A stretch of 64,000 nucleotides of DNA from Candidatus Poseidoniales archaeon (GCA_012964335.1 DTUF01000024.1:35853-99852), one strand, 5' to 3'. Shown: positions 1,106 through 59,804, counted from the stretch's first letter. The notes: generated by a model from the sequence alone, not told the origin. Numbers and translations: made by a program.

Positions 1106-2284
1106 TTATTCAAGCCGCTGAACAGGCTGGTTTCGACCAATATATTTTGGCCGGTAAATAGGTACTCCTCGACCACCTCTTGCCTTACGCTCATCAAGAA
1201 TTTGCGCACTAATCCCTGCAATTCTAGCCCATCCAAAGAAGGTAGTGAAATACTCTGGTTTATGGAATCCTACAGCGTGTAATAGTGTCCCTGATGCAAC
1301 ATCAACATTTGCAAAAGGGTTGCTTATTCTTGGGTTTTCACCGAGTACTTTTGGTGCAATTTCCCTTAATACCTTCACGATTTTGAAATTATTATCGTCA
1401 GGACATATCTCTGAACCTAAAGCGATTTGAGCCGCTGCTCTAGGGTCTTCTGCCCTAAGCACTGCATGACCAAAACCGTAAACGGGGCGCTTAGCCGCTA
1501 ATTCACTTCGAACGAACTTTTCCACCTTGTCAGGATCACTAGTACCAATCCTCTGGATAAACTCAAGACACGACTGATTAGCTCTCCCGTGCAACGGGCC
1601 TGAAAGCGCATTCATTGCACTTGACATAGATGCGTAGAGACTAGCCTTACCACTAGCCACACACTTTCCTGAAAAAGTGGATAGGTTACCACCACCATGG
1701 TCCATGTGCAAAACCAAGAAGGTACGAAGTACGCGAACCATATTGTCTGAATCTTCGCCTGATCTACCTAATAAATGGACGAAATTCTCAACCATGCCCC
1801 GTTCTGGCTCACTACCAGCTTCTGGCAATCCATGGCCACCGCGTAAAAGGAAGATTGTTGCCATTAACTCCGGCATTCTTGCAATTAAATTGAGTCCATC
1901 CTCTCTAACATCACCTGTTGTATCAGCAATCCCCAATGCTTGGATACCGAGGGCTAACCAATCCATTGGATGGCCACTCCCCGGAGTTAGCGATTCTAGA
2001 ACTCGAAGTGTACCCGCAGGCATCTCTTCTGCTCGAGCCGACAAATCTTTGCGAAATTCTTGGGACTCATGACGATTTGGTAAGCGCTTTTCAAAAAGCA
2101 GAAAGATGATATCTTCTGGATCCATTTCGGCAAGGTCAGTAATTGGGTAGCCGACGTAATGAACTCCTTTTATTGTATCAACGAATGAAGTTCGGCAAGT
2201 GCCGACTGGAATACCTCGTAATCCAGTATCCAAGTGACTATCCTTAACTTCAAACAATGTTGGTTCATCCTCACTGTCACTCAT
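1106..2284 (-). CDS. gltA: Citrate synthase (eukaryotic-like subtype)
   Basis: GLRG, DHGGGN, ALSGPLHGRANQ, GFGHAVLRAEDPR and ANVD motifs; catalytic His/His/Asp present. Confidence 0.92.
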   Translation of the reverse strand: MSDSEDEPTLFEVKDSHLDTGLRGIPVGTCRTSFVDTIKGVHYVGYPITDLAEMDPEDIIFLLFEKRLPNRHESQEFRKDLSARAEEMPAGTLRVLESLTPGSGHPMDWLALGIQALGIADTTGDVREDGLNLIARMPELMATIFLLRGGHGLPEAGSEPERGMVENFVHLLGRSGEDSDNMVRVLRTFLVLHMDHGGGNLSTFSGKCVASGKASLYASMSSAMNALSGPLHGRANQSCLEFIQRIGTSDPDKVEKFVRSELAAKRPVYGFGHAVLRAEDPRAAAQIALGSEICPDDNNFKIVKVLREIAPKVLGENPRISNPFANVDVASGTLLHAVGFHKPEYFTTFFGWARIAGISAQILDERKARGGRGVPIYRPKYIGRNQPVQRLE

Positions 2285-2950: not shown

Positions 2951-4924
2951 TTAGATATCTCCTAAGTTGAATGATTGACTCATTTCTGAAGGGTCCGCTG
3001 TTCTCAGAATTACCACTGGGTGTAGTTGGGTCACAGGCACTAACAAATCGTCTGCAGAAACTGATTCCTCATCAATATCCCAATCCGTTTCTGGAATGTA
3101 TTCTTCTATCCCAACGGCCTCGTAAGGGCGCTCTGGCTTAGTCCTCGTTTTCAGAGATTCTCCTGCCCCTAACTTTGAAATGCGTGACAGTTTACGTTCA
3201 ATTTCAAGCATTTTATCAGCCATTTCAACCAATTCCTTTGGCTCAGCATTCTCAATTTTACTGGAAATGTCCTCCATCTGACCATGTAAGGAAAATAGCT
3301 CATCTTGATGCCGACGGAGTCTAGACTCTAACCGGTCAAGGAATCCTTCACTCGTCAATTCAATATTGGGAACTTCACCTCTCGGTTCTTCTAATGTTGT
3401 GGGAAGACCTGACAACTCAATCCTGTCACGAGCATCCTCTAGTGCACCTTTCTCACGGCCGAGGTGCCTTTCAATCAGTGAATCAACGGCATCTCTACTA
3501 GTATCTGGCATTAAATCTGGAGGCTGATAATCATCAACAATTGATTCTAATTCACTGATAATATCAACATTTGGTTGGCGCTCCTTTGGTAGTACATGGT
3601 CTAGCACCTCACGCACAATTCGCTGCCCAGTTCTCTCAGTATCCCAAGCAATTAGGCCATCATCACCCCGCATTACCAATTCTTCTCCTGAAAGTATTGT
3701 CTCAATATCGCCGACACCAAACGGCTCGGCCCCAGCCTCGATTGCTAGTGCTACCGCCTCAAAACCAGACTCCGCTACACTCCAATCTCTATCCGCTGCA
3801 ACGGCAATTGCTCGCAATTGTTCGTCCGATAGAGGAAGACCCCTCACTAATGCTCGGTTTCTCATAAATAGAACCAATGTCATGACATCTGGATTATCAA
3901 GATTGACTTCAACGGATGACCTAAGTGCACCACCTAGTATCCCAGAATAATTGCAGTTTTCACTAGAAGTGATTACCACTTGAACCCCAAAATTTAGACA
4001 ACTGTCAATAATAATACCTAGGTTTTCTTCGCTATCTTCTCCAACCGATTGAATATCATCAATAAGCAGTGTACTACAGCCCTGAACTGCATCTACCCAA
4101 TCGTCAGATAACTGAGATGGAAATGAACTTCCAACAATGATTCGGACTTCGTCTTCAGGTGACCTAGTATGCATCGAGGAACCAATCGCTCTCAATAGAT
4201 GACTTTTCCCCACACCCTCGCCTCCAAAGATGATGAGGGGATTTGCTCGCTCAGATGGGTGAGTTATCACCTCATTACCGGCAGTACTTGCCAATCGGTT
4301 GTTAGGCCCTACCTGCCAATTACTCCATGTGAAGTTTTGGTTAGGTGTGAAGATAGGTGGCCATCCAGGACGACCTATTGCAAGTTCTTCTGCAACCATC
4401 TTCAACGGTGATTCAACTGGTGGTGGAACTGCCCCAATAAGTTCAGAATGATGCTGGCGAGCAGACTCAGTTGGTCTCACATGCCCTCTCTGCTTGGAGA
4501 GTACATCACGCCACAATGGTGTTGAGACGTTTCTTGTTTCCATATCTTCAACATCTGAGTTGACCCAGGCGGGAAAGTTTGGTTTAGTCGCTGATGGGGC
4601 TTGGTCAGTATCAATCATTGGCGCATCTGCTTCCACACCCTGCCGCATTCTCTGAAGCCTTTGAGACGCAATGGTACCAAAATCACCAGCTCTCTTTTTG
4701 ACTGCAGTTGATGTTGAATGTAAAAATGGCCCATCAAATGGATTCTCCACAGGAGGTAATTCTCCCCTTCGAATATATTTCCCAAGTGATGCTTGAGGTG
4801 ACTCTGTCTCTGAACTAGTCAACTCTGACTTTCGCTCTGACAATAACCGCTTGCTTTTCTCCAGTTGTTGTTGAAGAAGTGTTCGCCTAGCCATGCCATC
4901 CACCATATTTCCTAAATTTGCCAT
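2951..4924 (-). CDS. DnaA/Hda-like AAA+ ATPase domain protein with acidic/coiled-coil C-terminus
   Basis: FTWSNWQVGPNNRLA, NPLIIFGGEGVGKSHLLRAIG (Walker A) and LLIDDIQ (Walker B) match DnaA domain III; no recognisable DnaA DNA-binding domain IV. Confidence 0.78.
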   Translation of the reverse strand: MANLGNMVDGMARRTLLQQQLEKSKRLLSERKSELTSSETESPQASLGKYIRRGELPPVENPFDGPFLHSTSTAVKKRAGDFGTIASQRLQRMRQGVEADAPMIDTDQAPSATKPNFPAWVNSDVEDMETRNVSTPLWRDVLSKQRGHVRPTESARQHHSELIGAVPPPVESPLKMVAEELAIGRPGWPPIFTPNQNFTWSNWQVGPNNRLASTAGNEVITHPSERANPLIIFGGEGVGKSHLLRAIGSSMHTRSPEDEVRIIVGSSFPSQLSDDWVDAVQGCSTLLIDDIQSVGEDSEENLGIIIDSCLNFGVQVVITSSENCNYSGILGGALRSSVEVNLDNPDVMTLVLFMRNRALVRGLPLSDEQLRAIAVAADRDWSVAESGFEAVALAIEAGAEPFGVGDIETILSGEELVMRGDDGLIAWDTERTGQRIVREVLDHVLPKERQPNVDIISELESIVDDYQPPDLMPDTSRDAVDSLIERHLGREKGALEDARDRIELSGLPTTLEEPRGEVPNIELTSEGFLDRLESRLRRHQDELFSLHGQMEDISSKIENAEPKELVEMADKMLEIERKLSRISKLGAGESLKTRTKPERPYEAVGIEEYIPETDWDIDEESVSADDLLVPVTQLHPVVILRTADPSEMSQSFNLGDI

Positions 4925-23263: not shown

Positions 23264-23336
23264 GGGCTCGTGGTCTAGCGGTTATGACGTCGCCTTTACA
23301 AGGCGAATATCGGCGGTTCAAATCCGCCCGGGCCCA
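23264..23336 (+). tRNA. tRNA-Val(TAC), CCA not encoded
   Basis: GGGCTCG/CGGGCCC acceptor stem, TCGCC-TTTACAA-GGCGA anticodon arm, GGTTCAAATCC T-arm. Confidence 0.95.
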
Positions 23337-24323: not shown

Positions 24324-26000
24324 ATGGCGGACGGGGGCTGGCGTATAATCTCATTGAAATTACTCGCCGCGAAGTTGTTTCCCGCGGCAGACATCAGTGA
24401 AAGATTGTTAGCGATTGATAATCTAGACCAATTAATTTCTATTGCAGTTGATGAAGGAATGACTGGATTATTGACCAATGAAATCTTATCAAACCTTGAA
24501 CAAAAGTCTCGCTCTATAACGAGCGAGCCTGAGAAAGATGATGAAACTGATTCCGAATCTGTATCTGAAGATTTCAACGAGATGGTTCCGGTTCTTGATG
24601 CAGCAAAACAAGATTTGAACAACAAGCCAACACAAGGGCGCGTCCTCGCCCCGATTAGTCCACCTGAACTAAAACCAGCGGAACGTCCTCACGGACTTCC
24701 ACATTTCTCTCTAGATGGTTTTCCTATGCTAGCAACCGATGTTGATATTGAGTTAGACATCCACTTTGACATCACAGGAAAAAGTACTACTGAAGGGAAA
24801 CTAAGTGACATTATTTCCCACTTCAATAGCCGTTTAGAAAAAATAAAAAAGATGCTAATTACTTCAGGTAAATTACCAAATAGACCGATAGAAACCAATC
24901 AACTCGCTCGCAACAAATCACGTTATTCAGACAGTAACAATACTGCGACAATCGTTGGACTGGTCAATGATGTCAGGCATAAAGGGGAAAATCTTCATTT
25001 CAAGGTAGAAGACATTAGTGGTGAGATATTTTGTGTTCTCCGGCCACCGCGCGCTATGGATGGTTCAGCCGCAGCAAAGCGGCGAAACACCATTGCAGTT
25101 GCCGGTCTAATGGAGGACGATGTTGTAGGCGTAACAGGCTTCATCAATCCCGGTAGCAGAGACATGCTGTTAGTCGAAGATATACATCTTGCACCAATGA
25201 CAAGGCACACAAAACGATGTGCTGAGGAGAACCAAGCGGTATCTGCTGCTTTTGTATCAGATCTTCATGTAGGATCCAAAACATTCCTTCGCTTCCAATG
25301 GGATAAGTTGGTGAAATGGTTTCACGAAGACCCACTTGCGAAGACCATCAAATATCTAGTTCTCTCAGGTGATGCTGTTGATGGAGTAGGGATTTACAAG
25401 GACCAAGACAAAGAATTAGAGATTGTTGACGTCTACAAACAGTACGAAGAAGTGGCTCGTCTAACCGAGTTATTACCCGATTGGGTGGAGACCATCATCC
25501 TGCCAGGTAACCATGATGCGGTGCGCCCAGCTGAACCACAACCATCTCTAGACCCAATGATTCAGCAATATTTCAACAGCGCCACATTTGTTGGTAACCC
25601 TTGTGATTTCAGCCTACACGGGGTGCGTACTCTTGCTTATCACGGAGTGAGCATCATGGACTTTGTTTCATCAATAAAACACGTAACATTCAGTAAGCCA
25701 GAGATTGCCATGGCAGAAATGCTGGAGAGGCGTCATTTAGCACCAACTTGGGGTGGCAAAACCCCACTGTCCCCAGAACCAGAGGACCACATGGTGATTG
25801 AGAATATTCCAGACATTTTTGTCACAGGACACGTACATGGACATCACTGTGGAGATTACAAAGGAAGCACTCTGATTCAAAGTAGTACTTGGCAGGACCA
25901 GACAGGATACATGCGAATGCTTGGATTCCAGCCAAAACCGTGCATTCTGACTGTTGTTAATTTGAACACACATAAAACTGCTTCAGTACCATTTGCATAA
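24324..26000 (+). CDS. polD1: DNA polymerase D small subunit DP1 (OB fold plus calcineurin-like exonuclease)
   Basis: SDLHVGSK, GDAVDGVGIY, PGNHDAVRPAEPQP, YHG, RHLAPTWG, GHVH, STWQDQT. Confidence 0.93.
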   Translation: MADGGWRIISLKLLAAKLFPAADISERLLAIDNLDQLISIAVDEGMTGLLTNEILSNLEQKSRSITSEPEKDDETDSESVSEDFNEMVPVLDAAKQDLNNKPTQGRVLAPISPPELKPAERPHGLPHFSLDGFPMLATDVDIELDIHFDITGKSTTEGKLSDIISHFNSRLEKIKKMLITSGKLPNRPIETNQLARNKSRYSDSNNTATIVGLVNDVRHKGENLHFKVEDISGEIFCVLRPPRAMDGSAAAKRRNTIAVAGLMEDDVVGVTGFINPGSRDMLLVEDIHLAPMTRHTKRCAEENQAVSAAFVSDLHVGSKTFLRFQWDKLVKWFHEDPLAKTIKYLVLSGDAVDGVGIYKDQDKELEIVDVYKQYEEVARLTELLPDWVETIILPGNHDAVRPAEPQPSLDPMIQQYFNSATFVGNPCDFSLHGVRTLAYHGVSIMDFVSSIKHVTFSKPEIAMAEMLERRHLAPTWGGKTPLSPEPEDHMVIENIPDIFVTGHVHGHHCGDYKGSTLIQSSTWQDQTGYMRMLGFQPKPCILTVVNLNTHKTASVPFA

Positions 26001-26011
26001 GACGGAACTAT

Positions 26012-26698
26012 CTAGAGTTCCGATGGGAACGATTCGCCTGGGAAAAGATGTGGCCAAAGGTTTCTACAATCATTACCCTCAACAATAGGTACTCCAGCTT
26101 CTTGAAAGCCCTCAAAGGCCATTTCTTTACTTGGGTTAAACCCAATGAATCTACTGCCAGGAATCATCATTGAAAGGTCGGTATGATTGTCCCCAACTGA
26201 ACATATCTGCTCTGGCTCAAGGTTATTGATACGGCACAACTTCTCAACCATGTCCCCTTTGTAGTGAGCCGGTACTCTCACCATACCCTCATCTTGAAGG
26301 AAGCCTTTTTCATCATACTGGAAGCCATTTGCTACCCAGTCATCAACTTTCAACATTTGAGCAATTGAGCCTATTAGCAAATCAACACCTGCACTTACGA
26401 TGGCCACTGCGACGCCCCTCTCTTTGAGAGCATCCACCAAATCTCTAGCACCAGGATTTAGGTTTACACCTTGGTAACAACGAATTAATTCGTCGCGATG
26501 GATTAATGGATTCACCTTCTTCCAATGTTGGATATCATCAGCCATGAACTCTTCATCAGAAATTCCTCCCTTTAGGAATTGGTCTAACATCGGTCCACTA
26601 TTTGTGCCAAAATGTTCGTGAATAATGCGCCACGAAGAGATGGTGTCAATGAGTACCCCATCGCAATCGAAAACTACCGCTCGTAACTCCATGCTCAC
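26012..26698 (-). CDS. HAD-IB phosphatase (phosphoserine-phosphatase-like)
   Basis: FDCDGVL (motif I), IVSAG (II), K and VGDNHTD (III/IV). Confidence 0.85.
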   Translation of the reverse strand: MSMELRAVVFDCDGVLIDTISSWRIIHEHFGTNSGPMLDQFLKGGISDEEFMADDIQHWKKVNPLIHRDELIRCYQGVNLNPGARDLVDALKERGVAVAIVSAGVDLLIGSIAQMLKVDDWVANGFQYDEKGFLQDEGMVRVPAHYKGDMVEKLCRINNLEPEQICSVGDNHTDLSMMIPGSRFIGFNPSKEMAFEGFQEAGVPIVEGNDCRNLWPHLFPGESFPSEL

Positions 26699-26837
26699 AA
26701 CTCATGTTTGCGGTTGTTATGGTCTCTTATGAATGGAATGATTAAACTGCTGAACTACATCTATTCCTGTTCAGAATTTTCATAGTGAAAAAGTGTAATT
26801 TATACGGAAATATTGAGATTCAAGGTTTCAAAATGAG

Positions 26838-26986
26838 AAAAGGCCCCACCACTGCTCAGCAGATGCCGAACAGAGGCGGGGCCAAATCAGCCTTACCGCA
26901 AACAGAGCTTACGCTCTGTAACGGAAGGTCGGGTGCTCAGGGGCCAAAGCCCCCAAGCATCCCTGCATTCAGCGCCCGAAGGCGCT
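26838..26986 (-). other. Four tandem hairpins plus U-tract in the 3' region of the giant gene (structured 3'UTR/terminator or small ncRNA)
   Basis: On the minus strand: AGCGCC-UUCG-GGCGCU; GGG(A)UGCUUGGGGGC-UUUG-GCCCCUGAGCACCC; ACAGAGC-GUAA-GCUCUGU inside a longer stem; GGCCCCGCC.CUGUUCGGC-AUCU-GCUGAGCAG.GGUGGGGCC followed by UUUU. Confidence 0.7.
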
Positions 26987-27000
26987 TCGTATTACTCACT

Positions 27001-30000
27001 TCAGCGGATGCTGGTTGGTGATGCAGTGTACTGCTTCAACATGTACGCAGCGCCACCAGGCAATTCGTACTGAATGTCAATTAATGCCGAGTCGATGAGA
27101 CCGTCATTGTCTGTCATTCTGATGAAGATTCTGTCACCAGGTCCGAAGGTTGTGATACAAGGTGAACCACCACGCTCACAGTGAGATATGTCATCCCAGA
27201 AGGTTACCATATTCTCGCTGTTACGAGGAGCGAATCCGTACACATTCTCTTCATCTCCACCACCAGGTGCAAGTGCAGTCTTGTACACTTGCTGTCCGCT
27301 AGCATTGGTCCACAATACAGAGACAGTCACTGCCTGTGTGGCTAAGTCTGTAGCTGCATATGATGTAGTAATTCTCCAGTGCCATTGGTCCTGTTGTAGT
27401 CCACTGATCTCTTGTACAGTAATTGATTCTGCTGAGAAGGTCAACCTTGGTGTGCCCTTGACACTGGTGTCTGCGAGTGAGCCTGCCCACACGTAGATTA
27501 CACCAGCCAAGACGACTGTGATTGCAACAAGAAGGATGGTTGCGATAACTGGGCTAACTGCACGGTCATCGTCAATCATTGATTCCTCCTCGAAATCTTC
27601 CTCGTCTTCTTCCGCTCGAGAGCGGCTGAGTAGAGCACCAACGAATACGCCGACTAAGCCGACTGCCATCAATGTTGGAGCGAACGAAGCAACAGCCTGT
27701 GCTGCCTTGGTCTCCACAATGAGTGGTAACTCGCTGTTGGTTCCTGAAGCAGTCATGTTATTGTCTGCCCAGTTCTTCTCTTCTAGAGCTGGCCTCTCGT
27801 ACTTCGAGTTGTCAGTGTATTGACCAGTGAATGGATTCACTGTCATTATGTCTACGAACACACGAACATCCTCAGATGTCTTGTTCATTCGGACGTAATT
27901 TCCAACCTCAACTGATCCACCGTAGTCAGGTAGTGATAATGCACCGTTTCCTGGACCATTGCTTCCAAGTCTTACACTGCTCTGGTATGTACCATCACAG
28001 CCTGCACAATCAGTGTCAACGATAAAGAATGACACTTGCAAATCGTAGAGATACTTGTATGTTCCATCTGAGTTGATTGGAGCATCTCCATCCATGTGCT
28101 GAAGGTTAACTGACACAGGTACCATAGTCTCGCGCAGAACACCGTCAATTCCCTTGAAGTCAAATGGATCAGGGGACAGACGTACTTCGTTGAAGTTGTA
28201 GTCTGGTCGCAATTCCACTAGGTTGTGGACATTGATGAGTATCTGATGTTCGCTGCTGGTCTGCGAGTAACAGTTAGTAGTTGCGTCACCATCAGTTGCA
28301 AGAACGTTACATGCATCTGACTGTACGTAATCGTACTGTGCTGGTATTACATCCTCAGGAGAATCCCAAAGAATCAAGTTCATCAAACAGTAGTCACCAG
28401 ATCTTGGTGCCTTCTGGTGAATTCCATCATCTGGTATTCCATCACCATCTGCATCCTGTAGCATATCCCACTCGCTGCTAGTTGCATCTGTGGTAGCATC
28501 AGGAATCAAATCGATTTCCATTGTGTGTGCTGCGTTGTCAATTGTTACTGAGAAATAGTTAGTGTATTGACACTTGTCAGTGTAGTACTGAGAGTTATCG
28601 ATTGTCCAATATAGTTGCTCATTGGTGTTATCGTTATCGCTCATCATGTCGGTCAAATCAATTGTTAGTAGGTCAGAATCTTCTGTGTCCTCATCTACAG
28701 ACCACCACCAAGAATCGCCCTCATTATTTGGAGCATTGGCAGTTGAACGGATTGTATCTGCTGTACCATCTTGGGCTAGAGTCTGGATGACTGAGCCGTT
28801 ATTTACATCCCATGGGATAATACGAGTATTATCGTTAGTTGGTTGTACTGTAAATGGTACGCTGATTGTTGCCGCAGCATCATTGATTGATGCACCGTCT
28901 GAAAGATCCAATACGATGTTACAGGTTCCACCATCTTCATTTGCCTCATTGAGGTCAATTTCTAGAGTGGTACCGCCGCTAATGCTTACAGTGAATGGTG
29001 TACAATCTATTGGGTCAGTAACTGCAGTCCATGTGTAGGATTGAGGTGCTTGCTCAGTGTTGTTGTCAGCATTCCTGTCTTGCTCATTAGCTAGACCGTC
29101 ACCGATTCCCAAATCTTGAACAAATCCTTCACCAGATGCGCCTCCCAAGAACTTGGTTAGCAAATCCCAGCCTCGCTCTTCACCGGTCACTGGATGTGGC
29201 CTCTGAGGTTCGTCGTAGTAGTTGTAGACCGCATTACCGTTAGCATCAATGCCTTCAGTAAATACTGGTAGACCTGCTGAGTGTCGTGGGTTGTTGATTA
29301 CTGGAGCGTCATTGACGTTCTCTACACCAACAAGCATTGACTGACTGCTGTACAAGCCGTGTCCATCTTTGACAACCAGGTATAGTCTCTGGTTACCAAA
29401 CTCATTCGCATCTGGAGTGATGGTCATTGTATGACCTGTCAAATCGTATGCGTATGGTGATGTTGCATTGCTTGGGTTTGTAGCATCGTTAGTTACAGTC
29501 CATGTCAATGTACTCGATGGTTGCTGATAATCTGCAGCCTTATCGGTCAAAGTCACGGTCTGTGAACCTGAATCTTCATCGTATGATACATCGACCAAGT
29601 CAGAAATGACTGGCTTTGCACGTAGGATGTCAATAGTGATATCCTGATTCTGATCCATTGCTAGTGAACTATGTGTTCCCCAGTCCCAATAGATGTTATC
29701 TGCATCTCTTACCTTAACAGTCACATCATATGCGCGAGGTGTTGTTGCGCCGGTTGCTGTGAATGTTCGGTGGATTAGCAAGTAATCGTCTAGAGTACCA
29801 TCAGCCAAATCGCCACCAGCCAATTGCAGTGTACCGAAGTCACCGAATGTCTGAGCAGCACCGCTTGTCTGGTTCCATAGCTGTGGTGGATAAACACCAA
29901 GCACGTGACCAGAGTTTTCGTTCTGGATGATTGCTAGAGTCTTGATTCGTCCTGTTGGGCTTCCAATACAGTCCCATGGGATTGCGAACTCAGAGATACC

Positions 30001-40926: not shown

Positions 40927-41307
40927 TGTTCATACCCCAAACTGTCGTATGGCACTCCTTGGCACGTTTTGTCGCGCATATAACGATATGGGTACGTATC
41001 CTTTGATGCTTTGATTTGGAATGGGGTACGGAGGCCTTATTGAATGTTAAAAAAAGGCCAAAAAAAATGTAGTACAAACGTTTTGTAACACTTTTTTCGA
41101 TGCCATAATTTAGTAATAATCCCACCCCGTTTTGTATATAAATATCGAATATTTTGATTAGATTTTATTAGCTTGAAATTCTTGAAATGGTTGATAATCA
41201 TTTATTATTGATTAAATTTTAAGAATCTGGCTATGGTTGATGATCGGTTTTCCTATTCACAGTTGTAACTCTAAACTAATCGATTAAGGGTTCTGGGTTC
41301 TAAAATT

Positions 41308-41342
41308 AAAAAAGGACAGGGGGCCCGTAGGGCCCCCTGTCC
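41308..41342 (-). terminator. Perfect 13-bp GC-rich hairpin plus U6 tract downstream of the 1078-aa gene
   Basis: GGACAGGGGGCCC-UAC-GGGCCCCCUGUCC-UUUUUU on the minus strand; a small CCCGC-AGCA-GCGGG hairpin at 41351-41364 precedes it. Confidence 0.8.
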
Positions 41343-41400
41343 GAGGGTTTCCCGCTGCTGCGGGTCTTTGTGTTTGTTTGCTTTCTATTCCAATTCAACT

Positions 41401-44400
41401 TCAGTAGTCAAACTCGTCGGAATCGCCTTCTTCGCCACCGCGAGTTAGGATGAATGCTCCTGCGATAACTGCCACTAGGACAAGTATGCCGATTGCAATC
41501 CAAGCTTGGGTTGGGATTTCTCCGTCTCCACCTTCAACACCGATGGTGTCGTCAACATTCACGCCTGGTCCAGTGTCATCGGTAAATCTCAAACCTGCAC
41601 TGGACTCAGCTGTCTCCATATTACCAACTGAATCAACTGCTGCTACTGAGTAGTAGAATACACCAGAACCTGAGTGCCTGTTCATTGTAACATCCATGCT
41701 AGAATCAGCAGTGGTGTGACAGTTGCCTGCAGTAATTAGGCTAGAAACCTCAAGCGAGGTGTGTTGTGCTGGTGACCAGCAAATTAGCCAGTGATTGACA
41801 TCAGACGAATCAGCGGAAGTCCATGTGAAGTGAATGCTTGATTCACCAGAACTTGTAGCATCAAGGTCAGTAGCTCCTGCTGTTGGATCAACTTGGCCAT
41901 CTGCAGTTGCACTTCCTGAATCAACAGGTGTACCATACAGAGAGTTACCATCAGTTCCAACCTCACCGTTCTCTACACGCACGAGGAACTCGTATGTTGT
42001 ACCATGTGTCCCAGTAATTGTGTGAGTTGTTGTAGTCAAGTCAAAGGTACTGCGTGTACCGTCAAGGGCTGCTCCACCACCATTGACATACAAAACACCG
42101 TAATCGTTTGAACTAGTTAATTGTGAGTTGTTAATTGCCCATGAAAGGTCAATTACACCAGCGGAACCAAGCGTTGCTGTTAAGGAATCAATACCAATCT
42201 GTGGTGGTTGTCCAATAGTAGCGGATGCGAATACTGCGTATGTAGATGATGAGCGAGATGGTAGAGAACCATCATTGCTCCATGACAGACTAATTGTGTC
42301 TGCATCAACCTGAGCTTGTGTAGTACCTGGCATCTCAACCCATCCACCGATACCCTGATACCAAAGGGAATGGCCAACTGACGGGTCAGCGTCTAAAGTC
42401 ACAGTCAAGTCTTCACTGTTCACATCTGATGGTGCAAGTACTGCACTCACATCAATGTCAAATTCGCAGACTGAATCCCAACCTGGGCTACCACTTAGCG
42501 TCTGGTCTGTTACAGCATCAGCATCTGAGAATTGTGCAGTGAACTGCTGAGTTCCAGCATACAGAATAGCGTAATCTACACTCCAGCAATCTCCAGAAAC
42601 AACATTGGAATAGTTATTCCAAACACTGAAAGTGATCTGTGCCGATGCATCGGCACCCCAGTAATCGTATACTGTAACAATCATTGTTGGGGAACCAAAC
42701 CACATGGGATTCATGTCAACTGTACAATCAGGACTTCCGCCCATAATACTGCCTGTCATTGGATCTTCCATACCACTACAAATATCCAACTGTGGGTCCT
42801 GTTCAGAACCAGACACCATTGACCATGTGTACCCAAATGGTTCTTGGTTACCGTCTAGGTCTAAGTCAGGCTGGCTAAGATGTTCTGCACGAGCAGAGAA
42901 AGTGATGCGGGTGCCAGTAACAATGTCACCCTCAATTTCATCCATCGTCAAGTAAGCCGATGGACCCATGTTAAGAACTTCAAAGTGACTAGTACGCATA
43001 TCGTTGGCTGAGTTCATGTCGATCTTACAATCGGGGTTGGTACCTGTTCCGCAATCATTAGCGGGGTCGGTGTCAGTTAGCGTTGCGTCAAGTAAATCGA
43101 TTGTCGCACTCACTGTAAACATGCCTGGGTTAATCATTATCTCGGCGCAAGCAGTTGCTTCAAGAGTAGCCGGGAACATTTCTCCCAAGTACTCGTGCGA
43201 GGTAGATCCTTCTGGATCATCTGGGTTGTCACAATCGTTTGCCATAATAGGTGAACCCATGACATCATCACCATTAGAATCCTTTACATTGAACATAACT
43301 GCCCAATCATAATCGATTGTTCGGTCACTACCACTGTGAGCAACGGTTGCAAAAACCCGAGTCATTCCAGCATCCAATCGGCCGCTTTCTTGACGAGGGT
43401 TGCCTGCTTCAACATTGACAACTTGTGCATCGTGATAGGAGGTAAAGGTTGCAGTTAGCAACGCATCATTGTTTCCGTTTCTATCGTCAAGAGTACGGAC
43501 GACCTCTTCCATAGTATCGGTTGGAGGGCCTGGTGGGTGAGTACCTGATTGGTCGGGTGTTGATACAAATTCATACATAGTGTACTGAGTAAGAGACGAC
43601 TGGACTGTGAATATTCCTACGCCATTTGCGTTAGCCGAATCTCCTTGGATAGAACCTGCAAAGGTGTAATTTGTTGCTTGGAATTCAGCAACTTGGCGGG
43701 TTTCACCAATGTCACTTGCATTCATATGAGTTGGTGGTTCCATTGAAAGGTTGCTGAATACTTCAATGTCATTTGTTTGGCCAGCGCCAAACAAATCACC
43801 AAAGCTTACTGTCCATGTACATGTACTAGCACCTGGTCCATTGGGACAGTCTTCGTACGAACCATCACCATCTGAATCAAACATTGATACAGCGTTAGTG
43901 TTCCCCATACCATCTTCCATGTATGCTTGGAATAATCCACTAAAAGTTACGTCCATCTCAACGTCACGAGGATCCCAATCAGCACTACCATCGACAAATG
44001 CTGTCATGGTAAATAGATGTGGACCCGCGCCAGACATTGGGTCATCCCCATTATCCCAAGTAAGTTCTGTTGAGATATCATACCAATCCACTACATCAAC
44101 ATCATAATCTAGAATGTTATTGTTCAAATTGGTGTCTTGATCAAGAGAATCAACCTCGATATGAATTGTATACATACCTGGTGCTGGTGGTGTCCAAACT
44201 AAGTCTGCCCCAGTTGAATCCCGAACAATATAATGGCCGTTAGCCAAATAATCGCCAGCAGTAAAAGTTTGGATACCACAAGAAATTGTGTCATCACAAA
44301 CCGCAGCGTCTTCGGCATCAACAATCAACAAAGAGGAGTCACTCTTAGGAGCAACAGTTACAGTCACTGTCAATTCTGATATATCGTTGTCACCATCGTT

Positions 44401-44637
44401 CTTGATGACGAGGTCAAATAATACAGCCTCGCCAGCGTCAACGGAATTTCTCACGTTGCCGGTCATATCAGTCGTTGATTCACGAGGTGAATTCGCACCC
44501 ATCAACCAAACCTCATAATCGGCTCGGCCATTGGTGTCATCCACCTGTTCTCTCTCATTCATTTCAATTGGGCTTAGGCTTGCTACGATGCTCATTAACA
44601 TCAGCAGTGCTAAAACCAAACTTGTTGCTCTCTTCAT
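41401..44637 (-). CDS. Secreted, C-terminally anchored acidic surface protein (Ig/CARDB/FN3-like repeats)
   Basis: Signal peptide MKRATSLVLALLMLMSIVAS; CARDB-like D.NLNNN motifs; FN3-like LSW..Y.F.V and YYSVAAVDSVGN; C-terminal TM plus TRGGEEGDSDEFDY; GGAGG SD-like motif upstream. Confidence 0.8.
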   Translation of the reverse strand: MKRATSLVLALLMLMSIVASLSPIEMNEREQVDDTNGRADYEVWLMGANSPRESTTDMTGNVRNSVDAGEAVLFDLVIKNDGDNDISELTVTVTVAPKSDSSLLIVDAEDAAVCDDTISCGIQTFTAGDYLANGHYIVRDSTGADLVWTPPAPGMYTIHIEVDSLDQDTNLNNNILDYDVDVVDWYDISTELTWDNGDDPMSGAGPHLFTMTAFVDGSADWDPRDVEMDVTFSGLFQAYMEDGMGNTNAVSMFDSDGDGSYEDCPNGPGASTCTWTVSFGDLFGAGQTNDIEVFSNLSMEPPTHMNASDIGETRQVAEFQATNYTFAGSIQGDSANANGVGIFTVQSSLTQYTMYEFVSTPDQSGTHPPGPPTDTMEEVVRTLDDRNGNNDALLTATFTSYHDAQVVNVEAGNPRQESGRLDAGMTRVFATVAHSGSDRTIDYDWAVMFNVKDSNGDDVMGSPIMANDCDNPDDPEGSTSHEYLGEMFPATLEATACAEIMINPGMFTVSATIDLLDATLTDTDPANDCGTGTNPDCKIDMNSANDMRTSHFEVLNMGPSAYLTMDEIEGDIVTGTRITFSARAEHLSQPDLDLDGNQEPFGYTWSMVSGSEQDPQLDICSGMEDPMTGSIMGGSPDCTVDMNPMWFGSPTMIVTVYDYWGADASAQITFSVWNNYSNVVSGDCWSVDYAILYAGTQQFTAQFSDADAVTDQTLSGSPGWDSVCEFDIDVSAVLAPSDVNSEDLTVTLDADPSVGHSLWYQGIGGWVEMPGTTQAQVDADTISLSWSNDGSLPSRSSSTYAVFASATIGQPPQIGIDSLTATLGSAGVIDLSWAINNSQLTSSNDYGVLYVNGGGAALDGTRSTFDLTTTTHTITGTHGTTYEFLVRVENGEVGTDGNSLYGTPVDSGSATADGQVDPTAGATDLDATSSGESSIHFTWTSADSSDVNHWLICWSPAQHTSLEVSSLITAGNCHTTADSSMDVTMNRHSGSGVFYYSVAAVDSVGNMETAESSAGLRFTDDTGPGVNVDDTIGVEGGDGEIPTQAWIAIGILVLVAVIAGAFILTRGGEEGDSDEFDY

Positions 44638-52139: not shown

Positions 52140-52214
52140 GCTCGCGTGGTGTAGTCCGGCCCATCATTGCAGGTTTTCATCCTGTCTACCCGGGTTCGAA
52201 TCCCGGCGCGAGCA
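52140..52214 (+). tRNA. tRNA-Glu(TTC), full CCA not encoded
   Basis: GCTCGCG/CGCGAGC acceptor stem, archaeal Glu-type D-arm TGGTGTAGTCCGGCC, GCAGG-TTTTCAT-CCTGT anticodon arm, GGTTCGAATCC T-arm. Confidence 0.92.
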
Positions 52215-52439
52215 CCTAAGATAGTAATTGGTAGCAACGGTGCTAGATTCTAGTCGCTACCCACTATCTAAAATTAAATTAAAATTTTTGTTCTAAACAT
52301 AGAGAAGTGACCCTTTTAATTCATTTAATTAATAACTGATAATATGGCTATCATGGATGGGATACCAAGATTTTTCGCCCCTATGGGGCGATGTAAAATT
52401 TAAACTGGATATAATCAGCAATTCCAATAGGGTAGCGGC

Positions 52440-57071: not shown

Positions 57072-59804
57072 ATGCGCAAGGCGACTTTGTTGGTGATTCT
57101 GCTAATCATCGCCTCATTACCAAGCCCAGCGACAGCAGATGAAAATCCAGTTCGACAACGCTCAAACATGACTGAATTTACTTGGGTAGGTTCAGCAACA
57201 ACAGTGCAAGTTTCAGGTGAATGGGATGATTGGCAAGTCCGTACAGATTTAGTAGAGAATAACGGGTCTTGGATTGTTGAACTCAGTCTTAATCCTGGTA
57301 TGTATTGCTACAAACTTATCATTGATAATAATTGGATTTTTGACCCTGCCGAGCCATATCGCGGTTATTGTGGGTCATTTGAGAATAGCATTGTTCGAGT
57401 ACCTGATGCTTCAATCCCGATGTTCACTCATGAAATTAATAATCAAGATTTAACTATCTACTGGCATGCCGGAACCAGCGGCGGTGCACCTGAATATACT
57501 CCATCTGCTCTGACTAACAGCTCGTGGGATGCTCAGACATGGACATGGAGCCTTGACCTGTCAAACCTACCTGATGGAAAGAATACTCTACACATCAACG
57601 GAGAGGATGTTGATGGAAATATAGCCGATGATTTGTTACTACCATTTTGGAATGGACCACAAGCAGATTTCGTTTGGGAAGATGCCCTCATTTACATGAT
57701 AATGACCGATCGGTTTGTCAACGGTAACAATTCAAATGACCCACTTTTTGTCAACGGCAACTCAACGGGCGCTGCCCAAGGCGCTGATTGGATGGGGGGG
57801 GATTTCGCCGGCATTACTCAGATGATTCACTCAGGACATTTCACAAATCTTGGAGTTAATGCACTATGGTTGACCCCTTTCAACTCAGCAGCAAATGGCA
57901 CCGGCTCAAGTTCAGATGGGCAACACGAAGTTTCAGCCTACCATGGATATTGGCCTGTTGAACCCCGTGGAATTGATTCACGATTAGGGACTGAAGCAGA
58001 GTTGCATGAATTAGTGGATGCTGCACATGATGCTGGAATTCGCATAATGGGTGATTTTGTTGTAAATCACGTGCATGAAGACCACCCTTACTACTCCAAT
58101 AACCCTGAGTGGTTCAACCAAGGTTGTCTATGTGGTTCTGAAAATTGTGACTGGACTGAACACCGCCTTGACTGCTTGTTCAGTTCATACATGCCAGATG
58201 TCAATTGGCGTGAGAGGAACGCTAGTGAACAATTCATTTCTGATGTGATATGGTGGATGGAAACATTTGACCTTGATGGTGGACGAATAGATGCTGTCAA
58301 GCATGTTGAAGACCTTGCGATTACTAATCTAGCAGTACGCATCAATGAGAGATTTGAAACGGCTGGAACCGATTATTATCTGAAAGGTGAAACAGCCATG
58401 GGATGGGCTGGCCACAACTTGAATGACAATGCCAATGAGTATGGAACAATCAACAATTACATTGGGCCAAATGCACTTGATGGACAAGCTGACTTTGTTC
58501 TCTATCATGCGGTAGTAGACAATGTATTCACCTCAGGTAATATGGATTATGCGCATTTGGATTACTGGACTGCTCGAAGCCAGGACCAATATGTTGAAGG
58601 TGCAATAATGGTGCCTTTTGTCGGTAGTCATGATGTACCACGATTCACAAGCCGAGCAGATACTGGCACATCGGATGCTTGGAATCAATGGGTTGAGGAT
58701 GGCTTACCAGGTCAACCGGGAATTGATGGACCATACCAAACTGCTTTACAGGCTTACACGTGGCTACTTACAACGCCAGGTTCAGCCATGATTTACCAAG
58801 GGGATGAATATGGTGAATTTGGTGGGGCCGACCCTGACAATCGGCATATGTGGCGTAACATATCTAATCACAATTCGCGGGAAAACTCAATTATGGAAAA
58901 TATCAGTGCAATCGGTCAATTGAGGTTTAATTCAGATGCACTTCGCCGAGGTACATACGCATCCCTATCCAACGGAACAGATACGATCGCTTGGTCGATG
59001 ACAACTGAATCCGACCAAGCGGTGATTGCTATGAATCGTGGCACCACATCTGCAGAATTCAACCTGTTACTGGATTGGGTTGCAAACGATTCACTAAACG
59101 GCATTGTGATGAGTGATGAACACGAATTCACCCTACCTCCACATAGCGTTGCTATCTTCTTCCCTGAAAATGAAAACATCACAACACCCCCTGTTGAAGG
59201 GTGCACAGATGCTAATGCAACAAACTTTGACCCCCTCGCTGAAATTGATGATGGAACCTGTGAATACCAGGAACCACCACAAGAAGGTTGCACCGATTCA
59301 ACTGCTACGAATTATGATTCACTTGCCGAAATTGATGATGGCTCATGTGAATATGAGGAGCCACCCCAAGAGGGTTGTACCGATGCTGAAGCAATTAATT
59401 TTGATATTCTAGCAGAGGTTGATGATGGCACATGTGAATATAGTAATCCAGACCCTGATGACAATTCAAGCAATGATACAGGGAATCAAACCGATAACCA
59501 AACAGGTAACCAAAACTCAACTAATTCAACTGATGATAATACTGAGGATGTAAATACATCATGCATTACACCTGATGGAACCACTTACGAGGATGGTGAA
59601 ACGTGGGGAAAAACTTGCAATACATGCAGTTGTGAGAATGGAGAAATAATTTGCACTACGGAGGTATGCGATTCAACAATTGATGACCTTGAAAGAACGC
59701 AGGGTGGATTTAGTTTCCTTACTGGAGCGGCAATAGGATTCATTATACTCATAGTGTTTGCAATCGGGGCTGTTTTAATCATCACTCAGAGTCGTCGTGA
59801 CTGA
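57072..59804 (+). CDS. Secreted membrane-anchored alpha-amylase (GH13) with N-terminal CBM48-like domain
   Basis: Signal peptide; V.VSGEWDDW...Y.YK..ID..W..DP (CBM48/AMPK-like); YHGYW, DFVVNH, RIDAVKH (Asp), GE (Glu), SHD (Asp); Cys-rich repeats; C-terminal TM. Confidence 0.92.
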   Translation: MRKATLLVILLIIASLPSPATADENPVRQRSNMTEFTWVGSATTVQVSGEWDDWQVRTDLVENNGSWIVELSLNPGMYCYKLIIDNNWIFDPAEPYRGYCGSFENSIVRVPDASIPMFTHEINNQDLTIYWHAGTSGGAPEYTPSALTNSSWDAQTWTWSLDLSNLPDGKNTLHINGEDVDGNIADDLLLPFWNGPQADFVWEDALIYMIMTDRFVNGNNSNDPLFVNGNSTGAAQGADWMGGDFAGITQMIHSGHFTNLGVNALWLTPFNSAANGTGSSSDGQHEVSAYHGYWPVEPRGIDSRLGTEAELHELVDAAHDAGIRIMGDFVVNHVHEDHPYYSNNPEWFNQGCLCGSENCDWTEHRLDCLFSSYMPDVNWRERNASEQFISDVIWWMETFDLDGGRIDAVKHVEDLAITNLAVRINERFETAGTDYYLKGETAMGWAGHNLNDNANEYGTINNYIGPNALDGQADFVLYHAVVDNVFTSGNMDYAHLDYWTARSQDQYVEGAIMVPFVGSHDVPRFTSRADTGTSDAWNQWVEDGLPGQPGIDGPYQTALQAYTWLLTTPGSAMIYQGDEYGEFGGADPDNRHMWRNISNHNSRENSIMENISAIGQLRFNSDALRRGTYASLSNGTDTIAWSMTTESDQAVIAMNRGTTSAEFNLLLDWVANDSLNGIVMSDEHEFTLPPHSVAIFFPENENITTPPVEGCTDANATNFDPLAEIDDGTCEYQEPPQEGCTDSTATNYDSLAEIDDGSCEYEEPPQEGCTDAEAINFDILAEVDDGTCEYSNPDPDDNSSNDTGNQTDNQTGNQNSTNSTDDNTEDVNTSCITPDGTTYEDGETWGKTCNTCSCENGEIICTTEVCDSTIDDLERTQGGFSFLTGAAIGFIILIVFAIGAVLIITQSRRD
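59199..59441 (+). repeat. Three 87-bp (29-aa) tandem repeats GCTD..A.N[FY]D.LAE[IV]DDG[TS]CEY within the GH13 gene
   Basis: Units start at 59199, 59286 and 59373. Confidence 0.9.

Follow-up and report, generated by a model that had tools for sequence, protein, structure and literature searches.

Four conserved RNA hairpins and U-tracts follow a giant pilin-fused surface-protein gene in Thalassarchaeaceae and probably act as a terminator and 3'-end protector

The 14-kb gene for a giant surface protein in a Ca. Thalassarchaeaceae (Marine Group II, MGII) archaeon is followed, a short distance past its stop codon, by an element of four stable RNA hairpins (H1 to H4; 26986-26842 on the minus strand) and then U-tracts, which together make about 157 nt from H1 through the U-tract. 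The homologous giant genes of 19 other species also have the element behind their stop codons (20/20 loci examined), and there is selection on RNA structure on the giant gene's own strand. Our best explanation, which we regard as fairly probable, is that the element is a structured 3' UTR of the giant surface-protein/pilin mRNA, a composite of terminator and 3'-end protector. The window, by which we mean the whole stretch of 64,000 nt that was analysed, lies on contig C24 of a genome designated G000 in the comparisons (1.97 Mb, 44.5% G+C, 85.5% complete). Its features are listed in Table 1.

The giant protein opens with a hydrophobic segment at its N-terminus and continues as a long extracellular part; a TM segment and an acidic linker then lead to the archaeal type IV pilin domain at the C-terminus (aa 4455-4641). 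The only clear Pfam match in the whole protein is to Pilin_N (aa 4455-4501, E 3.6e-9). The stop codon is TGA (27003-27001), as it is in 20/20 homologues. The next gene encodes a HAD-family hydrolase on the same strand and starts about 130 nt beyond the U-tracts; a possible TATA box for it is predicted in between.

Some further observations were made on the protein and on the rest of the window. The end of the giant protein (aa ~4430-4641; window 27004-27640, minus strand) runs from the TM segment through the acidic linker EEDEEDFEEESMIDDDRA into an archaeal class III (prepilin-type) signal and the pilin domain, VSPVIATILLVAITVVLAGVIYVWAGSLA..., and both the signal and the domain look complete. 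Over 50 aa, the pilin stretch shares 62% of its residues with the N-terminus of a free 165-aa pilin (G000:C46:27802-28299), and the domain is 64-97% identical across 22 loci. This topology would place the prepilin-peptidase site inside the 4641-aa protein, so that the giant part may be separated from the pilin by cleavage. Three tandem 87-nt direct repeats, 66-76% identical, are present at 59196-59456 on the plus strand, and are apparently a repeated coding module (...CTDxxATNFD..AEIDDGxCEY...).

Table 1. Positions of features in the window, counted from its first letter.
Feature	Position	Strand	Basis or remark
tRNA-Val(TAC) gene	23264-23336	+	side observation
HAD-family hydrolase gene, 228 aa	26012..26698	-	next gene, same strand; ORF list, Pfam
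TATAAATT, possible TATA box of HAD hydrolase gene	26797..26804	-	predicted from sequence
U-tracts UUUUCUCAUUUU (two U4 runs), presumed transcription stop	26830..26841	-	directly after H4
H4: 18 bp (9 + 9 around 1x1 internal loop), loop AUCU	26842..26883	-	RNA fold; adjoins U-tract
H3: outer bulged stem + inner 7 bp, loop GUAA	26891..26928	-	RNA fold
H2 including flanks CAGGG...CCCG	26930..26965	-	3 G-C pairs, variable bulged base, 11-bp GC-rich stem, variable 3-5-nt loop
H2: 3 + 11 bp, one bulged A, loop UUUG	26931-26963	-	RNA fold
H1: 6 bp, loop UUCG, closing pair C-G	26971..26986	-	RNA fold
Unpaired linker from stop codon to H1, 14 nt	26987..27000	-	length and sequence differ among species
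Giant gene, 4641 aa	27001..40926	-	ORF list, translation
3' end of 1078-aa gene: small hairpin, 13-bp GC hairpin (41342-41314), then UUUUUUAAUUUU (U6)	41304..41365	-	fold z = -6.2
Upstream surface-protein gene, 1078 aa, membrane-anchored	41401-44637	-	directly upstream of giant gene
tRNA-Glu(TTC) gene	52140-52216	+	side observation

The minus-strand RNA from 27010 to 26820 folds into exactly the four hairpins, with an MFE of -105 kcal/mol. Shuffled versions of the same RNA have a mean of -67.0 (sd 4.1), which gives z = -9.18, and 0/200 fold as well, while the plus strand of the element reaches only -80.4 kcal/mol (z = -5.64). Six of the 53 pairs in G000 are G.U, and would be A.C mismatches on the plus strand. 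An earlier reading of this DNA (the sequence-only reading) had placed the hairpins correctly within 2 nt, with H1 beginning 14 nt past the stop, and had taken the apparent mismatches of the plus strand to be G-U pairs of the minus strand; the folding of both strands that it proposed bears this out. It had also pointed to extra-stable loops, which stands in part. In most sequences it is right for H1 (UUCG in 14/22 distinct sequences) and for H3 (GNRA in 12/13 sequences with a G000-like H3, and CUUG in four others; both counts read by eye), but not for H2 and H4, whose loops are free to vary among species.

The stability of the element is exceptional within its genome. The 160-nt stretches downstream of 1413 genes have a mean folding energy of -36.9 kcal/mol (sd 8.1), and the element ranks first among them at -96.2 kcal/mol, the runner-up having -69.6. 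This gene set, which was also used for the terminator scan described below, comes from crude ORF calling (1467 ORFs, 94% coding), and the 1413 are those with enough flank. The energy per base, -0.61, is the lowest of the 25 densest hairpin clusters genome-wide, rRNA and tRNA flanks included; the next lowest is -0.45.

Relatives were searched with a 401-nt query consisting of the gene end and the element, which found matches in 22/60, namely in 19/20 genomes of the same genus and 2/2 of genus g3, together with one short stray match in genus g17. When 185,579 species genomes were scanned at the protein level, the conserved pilin-domain end turned up in 22 loci, all of them in Poseidoniales-type MAGs, and these gave two further distinct downstream sequences (22 distinct in all). 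When the 220 nt past the TGA were folded for 20 loci, each folded independently into three or four GC-rich hairpins with energies of -85 to -122 kcal/mol. The protein end is 64-97% identical, and yet the sequences of H3 and H4 cannot be aligned between subgroups: the sequence of these two hairpins has been exchanged and their structure preserved. The length of the element varies from 125 to 190 nt by non-multiples of three, and it is therefore not coding.

Covariation was measured in three ways. With the G000 fold imposed on 12 sequences that had been aligned by MAFFT alone, 94.9% of cells were paired, compared to 37-49% with slid partners, and 13/53 pairs had changed on both sides, compared to 3-6 slid. 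In a covariance-model alignment of 20 sequences (A5, made up of 19 from the window's genus and one, L023, from genus g3), 95.8% of cells are paired and 40/52 pairs have changed on both sides, although these counts are inflated by the fitting of A5 to the structure. The covariation score of A5 is 0.388 compared to at most 0.101 slid, and 0/500 shuffles score as high, a control that overstates the significance because the species are related. RNAalifold applied to A5 predicts all four hairpins, with 34/46 pairs compensatory; a plain MAFFT alignment of all 20 sequences misaligns H4, and RNAalifold therefore recovered only H1, H2 and inner H3 from it. An earlier covariance-model alignment (A4) contained 12 antisense or partial matches and was redone at a stricter E-value, which dropped two sequences of genus g3 (L064 and L069), so that the pair counts cover 20/22 distinct sequences.

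Among the 943 cells of the 20 species, 108 are G.U or U.G and only 8 are A.C or C.A. The pairing is therefore kept on the sense-strand RNA only, and selection acts at the RNA level. This asymmetry, and the compensatory changes found in four hairpins over 20 species, substantiate the claim of selection on RNA structure made in the sequence-only reading, and are the opposite of the lack of structural conservation and covariation in homologues that it had said would tell against it. The identity of the element to G000 is higher than that of the following 125 nt in 13/14 comparisons and equal to it (0.99) in the nearest relative; in L013, for example, the values are 0.76 for the element and 0.51 for the following 125 nt. 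In L013-L017, element identity (0.62-0.76) also exceeds that of third codon positions (0.54-0.63). Judged by these identities, purifying selection on the element appears clear.

The constraint is not spread evenly over the hairpins. In A5, each of the 6 pairs of H1 has a two-sided change in one species or more, and the share of paired cells in H1 is 95.8%. H4 also has 95.8% of cells paired, with 14/18 pairs changed on both sides, and its stem sequence is wholly different in the G020/G004/G011/G018 group. All 7 inner pairs of H3 have changed on both sides, and the hairpin is missing in 2/20 species (L021 and L022, from G002 and G008). H2 has 98.6% of its cells paired and 6/14 pairs changed on both sides, and with its flanks it has columns that are invariant or nearly so in 20 sequences (C39 A40 G41 G42 G43 ... 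C72 C73 G74). No other part is conserved in sequence in both genera; H1, H3 and H4 keep shape only. The last hairpin is present, with a T-rich tract after it, in 19/19 genus sequences of A5; in genus g3 (L023, L064, L069) the hairpins are present, but no clear U-tract comes between them and the next gene. In two species the last hairpin's 3' arm and the U-tract are locally duplicated in tandem, namely in G012 (L011, ~1430-1500, minus strand), where GCTGAGCGG...TTTTCTCAT occurs about 2.5 times, and in G002 (L021, ~1690-1790, plus strand), where ...GCCTGCCCCCTCTCTTTCGTTTTCAAGTGC occurs twice.

The element is a single-copy sequence of no known family. A BLAST search of the G000 genome returned only the element itself and chance matches of 14-20 nt, and the covariance model scored 201.9 bits on the element and 29.9 bits on the next match. 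A REP- or MITE-like repeat, dispersed in many copies at unrelated sites, was looked for in G000 by both methods and not found, which disposes of the known dispersed repeat or MITE that the sequence-only reading had named as a possible refutation. In relatives there is also one copy per genome. The Rfam search that it had suggested gave no family at the gathering score: the best Rfam 15 match over 26000-28000 has E = 0.94 and 17.8 bits, far under gathering, and over the whole 64-kb window only the two tRNAs pass. We found no published description of the element in those parts of the literature that were searched.

Transcription was followed in public metatranscriptomes, of which 24 runs from 20 studies contain 17-39% of the sampled words of 26500-27600. 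Four runs from four studies (X1, X2, X5 and X20) were compared in detail, as assembled contigs only. In all four, contigs of depth 12-97 continue from the coding end through H1 and H2; the sense region beyond the stop codon is represented in the RNA libraries, which the sequence-only reading had made a condition of its proposal. The contigs end at 26940 (X1), 26921 (X2), 26920 (X20) and 26919 (X5), about 80 nt short of the U-tract, and the end shared by three studies (26919..26921, minus strand) lies where the outer stem of H3 meets the inner one. In X5, letters resembling an Illumina adapter come directly after the end at 26919, and X1 has separate contigs of similar depths, 86 and 96.8. No contig in the four runs covers 26300-26918, which is not evidence that RNA is absent there, and none reaches the HAD gene; contigs cannot show true RNA ends. 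The contigs may stop because of a real end or cleavage at the H2/H3 junction, lost cover of the last ~85 nt of a transcript that finishes in a tightly closed 18-bp hairpin, or an assembly break at strain divergence.

No conserved TATA-like box was found across species when the final 120 nt of the coding sequence were searched for one. A TATA-like CATTAATT about 80 nt upstream of the stop occurs in G000 only, and was rejected as an internal promoter. Given that there is no conserved promoter and that the contigs are continuous with the coding region, it is unlikely that the element is an independently transcribed ncRNA gene.

Strong hairpins that run into U-tracts are rare in G000. Only 5/1413 genes have, within 140 nt of the stop, a hairpin of -25 kcal/mol or lower that abuts TTTT, compared to 2 on the antisense control, and most genes of G000 have no such end. 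This fold-based scan replaced a count of perfect-stem hairpins with T-tracts, which under-detects stems with internal loops, H4 included; the giant gene's element is itself not among the five, since the scan covers 140 nt and the T-tract of the element comes later. One of the five is the surface-protein gene directly upstream of the giant gene, whose 3' end has the same architecture as that of the giant gene, with two hairpins. Another is the gene for the free 165-aa pilin (Pilin_N E 4.6e-11), which has an 18-bp stem and U9 after the stop. The remaining three are two adjacent genes of ~200 aa and a 393-aa gene without clear family. In the adjacent pair (L025; G000:C43:88122-89700), each gene is followed by a strong hairpin and U8-9; one gene has a weak match to MIP channels in Pfam and the other has no family, and the first of the two sites is the only other covariance-model match in G000 (29.9 bits).

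The hairpin and U-tract style goes with pilin and surface-protein genes. Since such ends come after both the upstream gene and the giant gene, the giant gene would be a single transcription unit between predicted hairpin terminators. For MGII, the account in PMC5069720 gives a DUF1628 pilin as having the seventh-strongest start site, and attributes 93% of euryarchaeal RNA-seq reads to 13 disordered, partly cell-surface proteins. By analogy with that account, the pilin and surface-protein genes described here are plausibly very highly expressed.

A possible wider family was sought with a covariance model, R1, built from the window's genus alone. It gave weak matches (20-34 bits) in 10/74 sampled genomes of sister family f3, and a match in 1/126 genomes outside the two families in a separate phylum sample. 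Eight f3 genomes were inspected (G153, G101, G090, G054, G158, G076, G107 and G148; loci L030, L032-L034, L036, L037, L040 and L042). The match consists of a small hairpin, ACAACA, a 13-bp H2-like stem (GGUGCUUCGGGGC...GCCCCGGGGCACC; pattern UGCUU[C/G]GGGGC...GCCCC..GCA) and a U-tract, in that order, and follows a non-homologous gene for a Q/G/D/N-rich repeat protein ending ...DNDGILDI[YF]E[FA]. Pfam found no family for this protein, and in every case a contig end interrupts its gene within 1 kb. The protein has GQQ repeats and DNDG repeats resembling calcium sites, and the letters after its stop resemble those (TGAAGTTGAA...) after the stop of the 1078-aa gene in the window. The likeness may come from common descent, from a shared binding partner or from convergence of GC-rich terminators.

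The pattern GCTTSGGGGCN{3,5}GCCCC was then counted in 401 genomes of the order, where it has 28 sites in 27 genomes, compared to 4 for a reversed control. Sites in other contexts are 6 in genus g10, 1 in g9 and 1 in the sister family (G213), a tally of contexts that leaves out G174, G306, G115, G396 and G170 of the sister family. In genus g10 (L086-L091), a fumarase-like gene is followed by a conserved and strongly folding non-coding region of ~240 nt, with T9 at its end. Neither Rfam nor BLAST against the G000 genome gave a match to this region, which is a candidate structured ncRNA of a size near that of the 229-nt Tan1, to which we return below.

As a composite terminator and 3'-end protector, the element would work as follows. 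H4 with the two U4 tracts would add an intrinsic terminator of bacterial style to the U-tract signal that is usual in archaea, and would stop RNA polymerase ahead of the HAD gene. The very stable stem-loops H1-H3 would stay stacked on the transcript after its release, and would block 3'-to-5' degradation of a 14-kb message that is slow to make. A candidate for the decay machinery is an exosome-like RNase PH pair: G000 encodes three proteins with an RNase_PH domain, and two of the genes lie side by side, as they do in exosome operons; the genome is incomplete, and a search of it for RNB-family nucleases found none. There are also two beta-CASP proteins, of 639 and 464 aa, and from its size alone the 639-aa one (121 bits) is a putative aCPSF1. 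We infer that polymerase stops at the U-tract, that the hairpin adds to the efficiency of termination and that the hairpins slow decay. The sequence-only reading had offered three alternatives, namely a 3' stability element, a processing or localisation signal, and an unannotated ncRNA. The data favour its first and make the separate ncRNA unlikely, and the most economical explanation adds the role of terminator.

Several points count against this explanation. The archaeal terminators studied so far can do without a hairpin (PMC8716108), and most genes of G000 have none. H2 and its flanks CAGGG...CCCG are invariant in sequence while H3 and H4 drift, which a simple terminator or stability role leaves unexplained; and the contigs stop ~80 nt before the U-tract, with genus g3 having no clear U-tract at all. 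The conservation of H2 and the coinciding contig ends keep alive a function in processing or protein binding. An endonuclease might cut at the H2/H3 junction, to leave an mRNA capped by H1-H2 and a free H3-H4 RNA of ~90 nt, or the whole element might be a stable functional fragment. We consider this unlikely, with the following in its favour: contigs from three studies, whose strains are 2-5% different from the window, end within 3 nt; the adapter letters in X5 are what is expected if many cDNA fragments end there; and H1-H2 evolve differently from H3-H4. The contigs are also unbroken through upstream sites at which the strains differ from the window, which argues against a strain-branch artefact at 26919-26921, and an abundant structured ncRNA, Tan1, is reported from the same family in the account of PMC5069720. 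Contigs are however no guide to RNA ends, and the species begin to differ at 26921-26919 too. Random-primed libraries under-cover the last 50-100 nt of an RNA, and the very stable H4 leaves scant room for priming. The four runs hold no RNA contig of H3-H4 alone, there is no conserved promoter upstream, and the 229 nt of Tan1 are unlike the length of the element. In a slightly less probable alternative, H2 with its invariant CAGGG/CCCG base and its bulges would be specifically bound by a protein through which the mRNAs of abundant surface proteins are controlled in their translation, membrane targeting or decay, with the other hairpins accessory; this is compatible with a terminator role. It would account for H2 being kept in sequence and the others in shape only, it fits the H2-like stem and U-tract that R1 finds in the sister family after an unrelated gene, and disordered surface proteins dominate MGII transcript pools as described in PMC5069720. 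The sister-family matches are weak, however, and a GC-rich stem can converge; the H2 loop is not conserved, and high GC and the need for stability can alone conserve a stem of a G-run and a C-run. No candidate binding protein for H2 was identified. More doubtful again is a combination of the two, in which H1-H2 would be a sequence-specific MGII module directing a cut at 26919-26921, giving a hairpin-capped, long-lived mRNA and an H3-H4 small RNA. Such a module would be shared by the messages of the most abundant surface proteins, these being the giant pilin-fused protein and the Q/G/D/N-rich protein of the sister family.

The two other explanations considered are far less probable. An element acting as DNA (a MITE or dispersed palindromic repeat, a recombination or integration site, or a replication-related cruciform) could claim that the plus strand also beats its shuffles, as any inverted repeat must, and that the H4 3' arm and U-tract are locally duplicated in L011 and L021. 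It is largely refuted by the single copy in the genome and one per relative, by the excess of G.U over A.C cells, which places the pairing on the sense-strand RNA, and by a position fixed relative to the stop codon in 20 species, and we regard it as very improbable. A recoding signal for the terminating ribosome, either for readthrough of the stop codon or as a 3'-UTR SECIS for UGA, has in its favour that the stop is UGA in all the homologues and that H1 begins so close to it in G000. The next in-frame stop comes after 3 codons in G000, however, and the extension is conserved in neither length nor sequence; the linker varies from ~13 to 45 nt among species, Rfam gives no SECIS match, and the giant gene has no in-frame UGA inside it. 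Readthrough and SECIS were rejected for the short unconserved extension, the variable linker and the lack of a SECIS match, and we give them scarcely any credence.

It is concluded that an abundant uncultured lineage of marine archaea keeps a bacterial-looking hairpin and U-tract, together with three further hairpins, under selection behind a 14-kb gene, and that a similar style of end is used for a pilin gene and for the neighbouring surface-protein gene. Three points go beyond the sequence-only reading: H4 with its U-tract has the form of a bacterial intrinsic terminator, the architecture recurs after the neighbouring surface-protein and free pilin genes, and H2 alone is conserved in sequence in addition to shape. 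The element provides a concrete case for hairpin-assisted termination or 3'-end protection in archaea. Its sequences could serve at once as the seed alignment of a new RNA family, and the element marks the 3' end of a gene in which assemblies usually break. A new principle of RNA biology would be involved only if the element were processed or bound by a protein as proposed above; with an H1-H2 module that directs cleavage, archaea would have a way of processing 3' ends in which structure, and not a U-tract, is the defining signal.

It remains to compare the element with known systems. In bacterial intrinsic terminators a GC-rich stem-loop is followed by a U-tract on the transcribed strand, and H4 with UUUUCUCAUUUU has this form: a GC-rich stem of 18 bp runs directly into a U-tract on the sense strand after a stop codon, and the form recurs after a few other G000 genes. 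The usual stem of an intrinsic terminator is 7-8 bp, and H4 is far longer; here there are also three more conserved hairpins ahead, the host is an archaeon, and termination is predicted from sequence. According to the account in PMC13675443, archaeal RNA polymerase terminates at U-tracts, a hairpin can enhance bacterial-like terminators in vitro, and in work cited there the polymerase stops in vitro at bacterial-like hairpin/oligo-T terminators, which H4 and its U-tract resemble in form. The archaeal terminators mapped so far, as presented in PMC8716108, are U-tracts that do not require a hairpin and are reported without hairpins. Both accounts agree with the background given in the sequence-only reading, that archaeal termination is usually by oligo-U rather than by hairpins. 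The element has what the archaeal U-tract/aCPSF1 (FttA) terminator calls for, in that there are two U4 tracts at the presumed end and a beta-CASP protein of aCPSF1-like size is encoded, its identity as aCPSF1 being inferred from that size. Such terminators need no upstream structure, whereas in the element structure is the most strongly conserved feature.

The 3' stem-loops of bacterial REP sequences and the 3' inverted repeats of chloroplasts stabilise mRNA against 3'-to-5' exonucleases. The element shares with them stable stem-loops stacked at the 3' end of a message, in a genome that encodes an RNase PH pair. REPs are dispersed in many copies, whereas the element is single copy and conserved with its gene across species. 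Tan1 ('Thalassoarchaea ncRNA 1') is described in PMC5069720 as a highly abundant and structured RNA of 229 nt in marine metatranscriptomes, from a non-coding region and not in Rfam. It is like the element in its archaeal family, its high structure, its presence in marine metatranscriptomes and its absence from Rfam; by that description it differs in being longer and in coming from a non-coding region, whereas the element is continuous with an mRNA in contigs. Finally, conserved structured cis-RNAs are recognised by compensatory changes in several species, and these are found here by three analyses, in 13/53 pairs of the MAFFT-only alignment and, with the inflation noted for A5, in 40/52 and 34/46.
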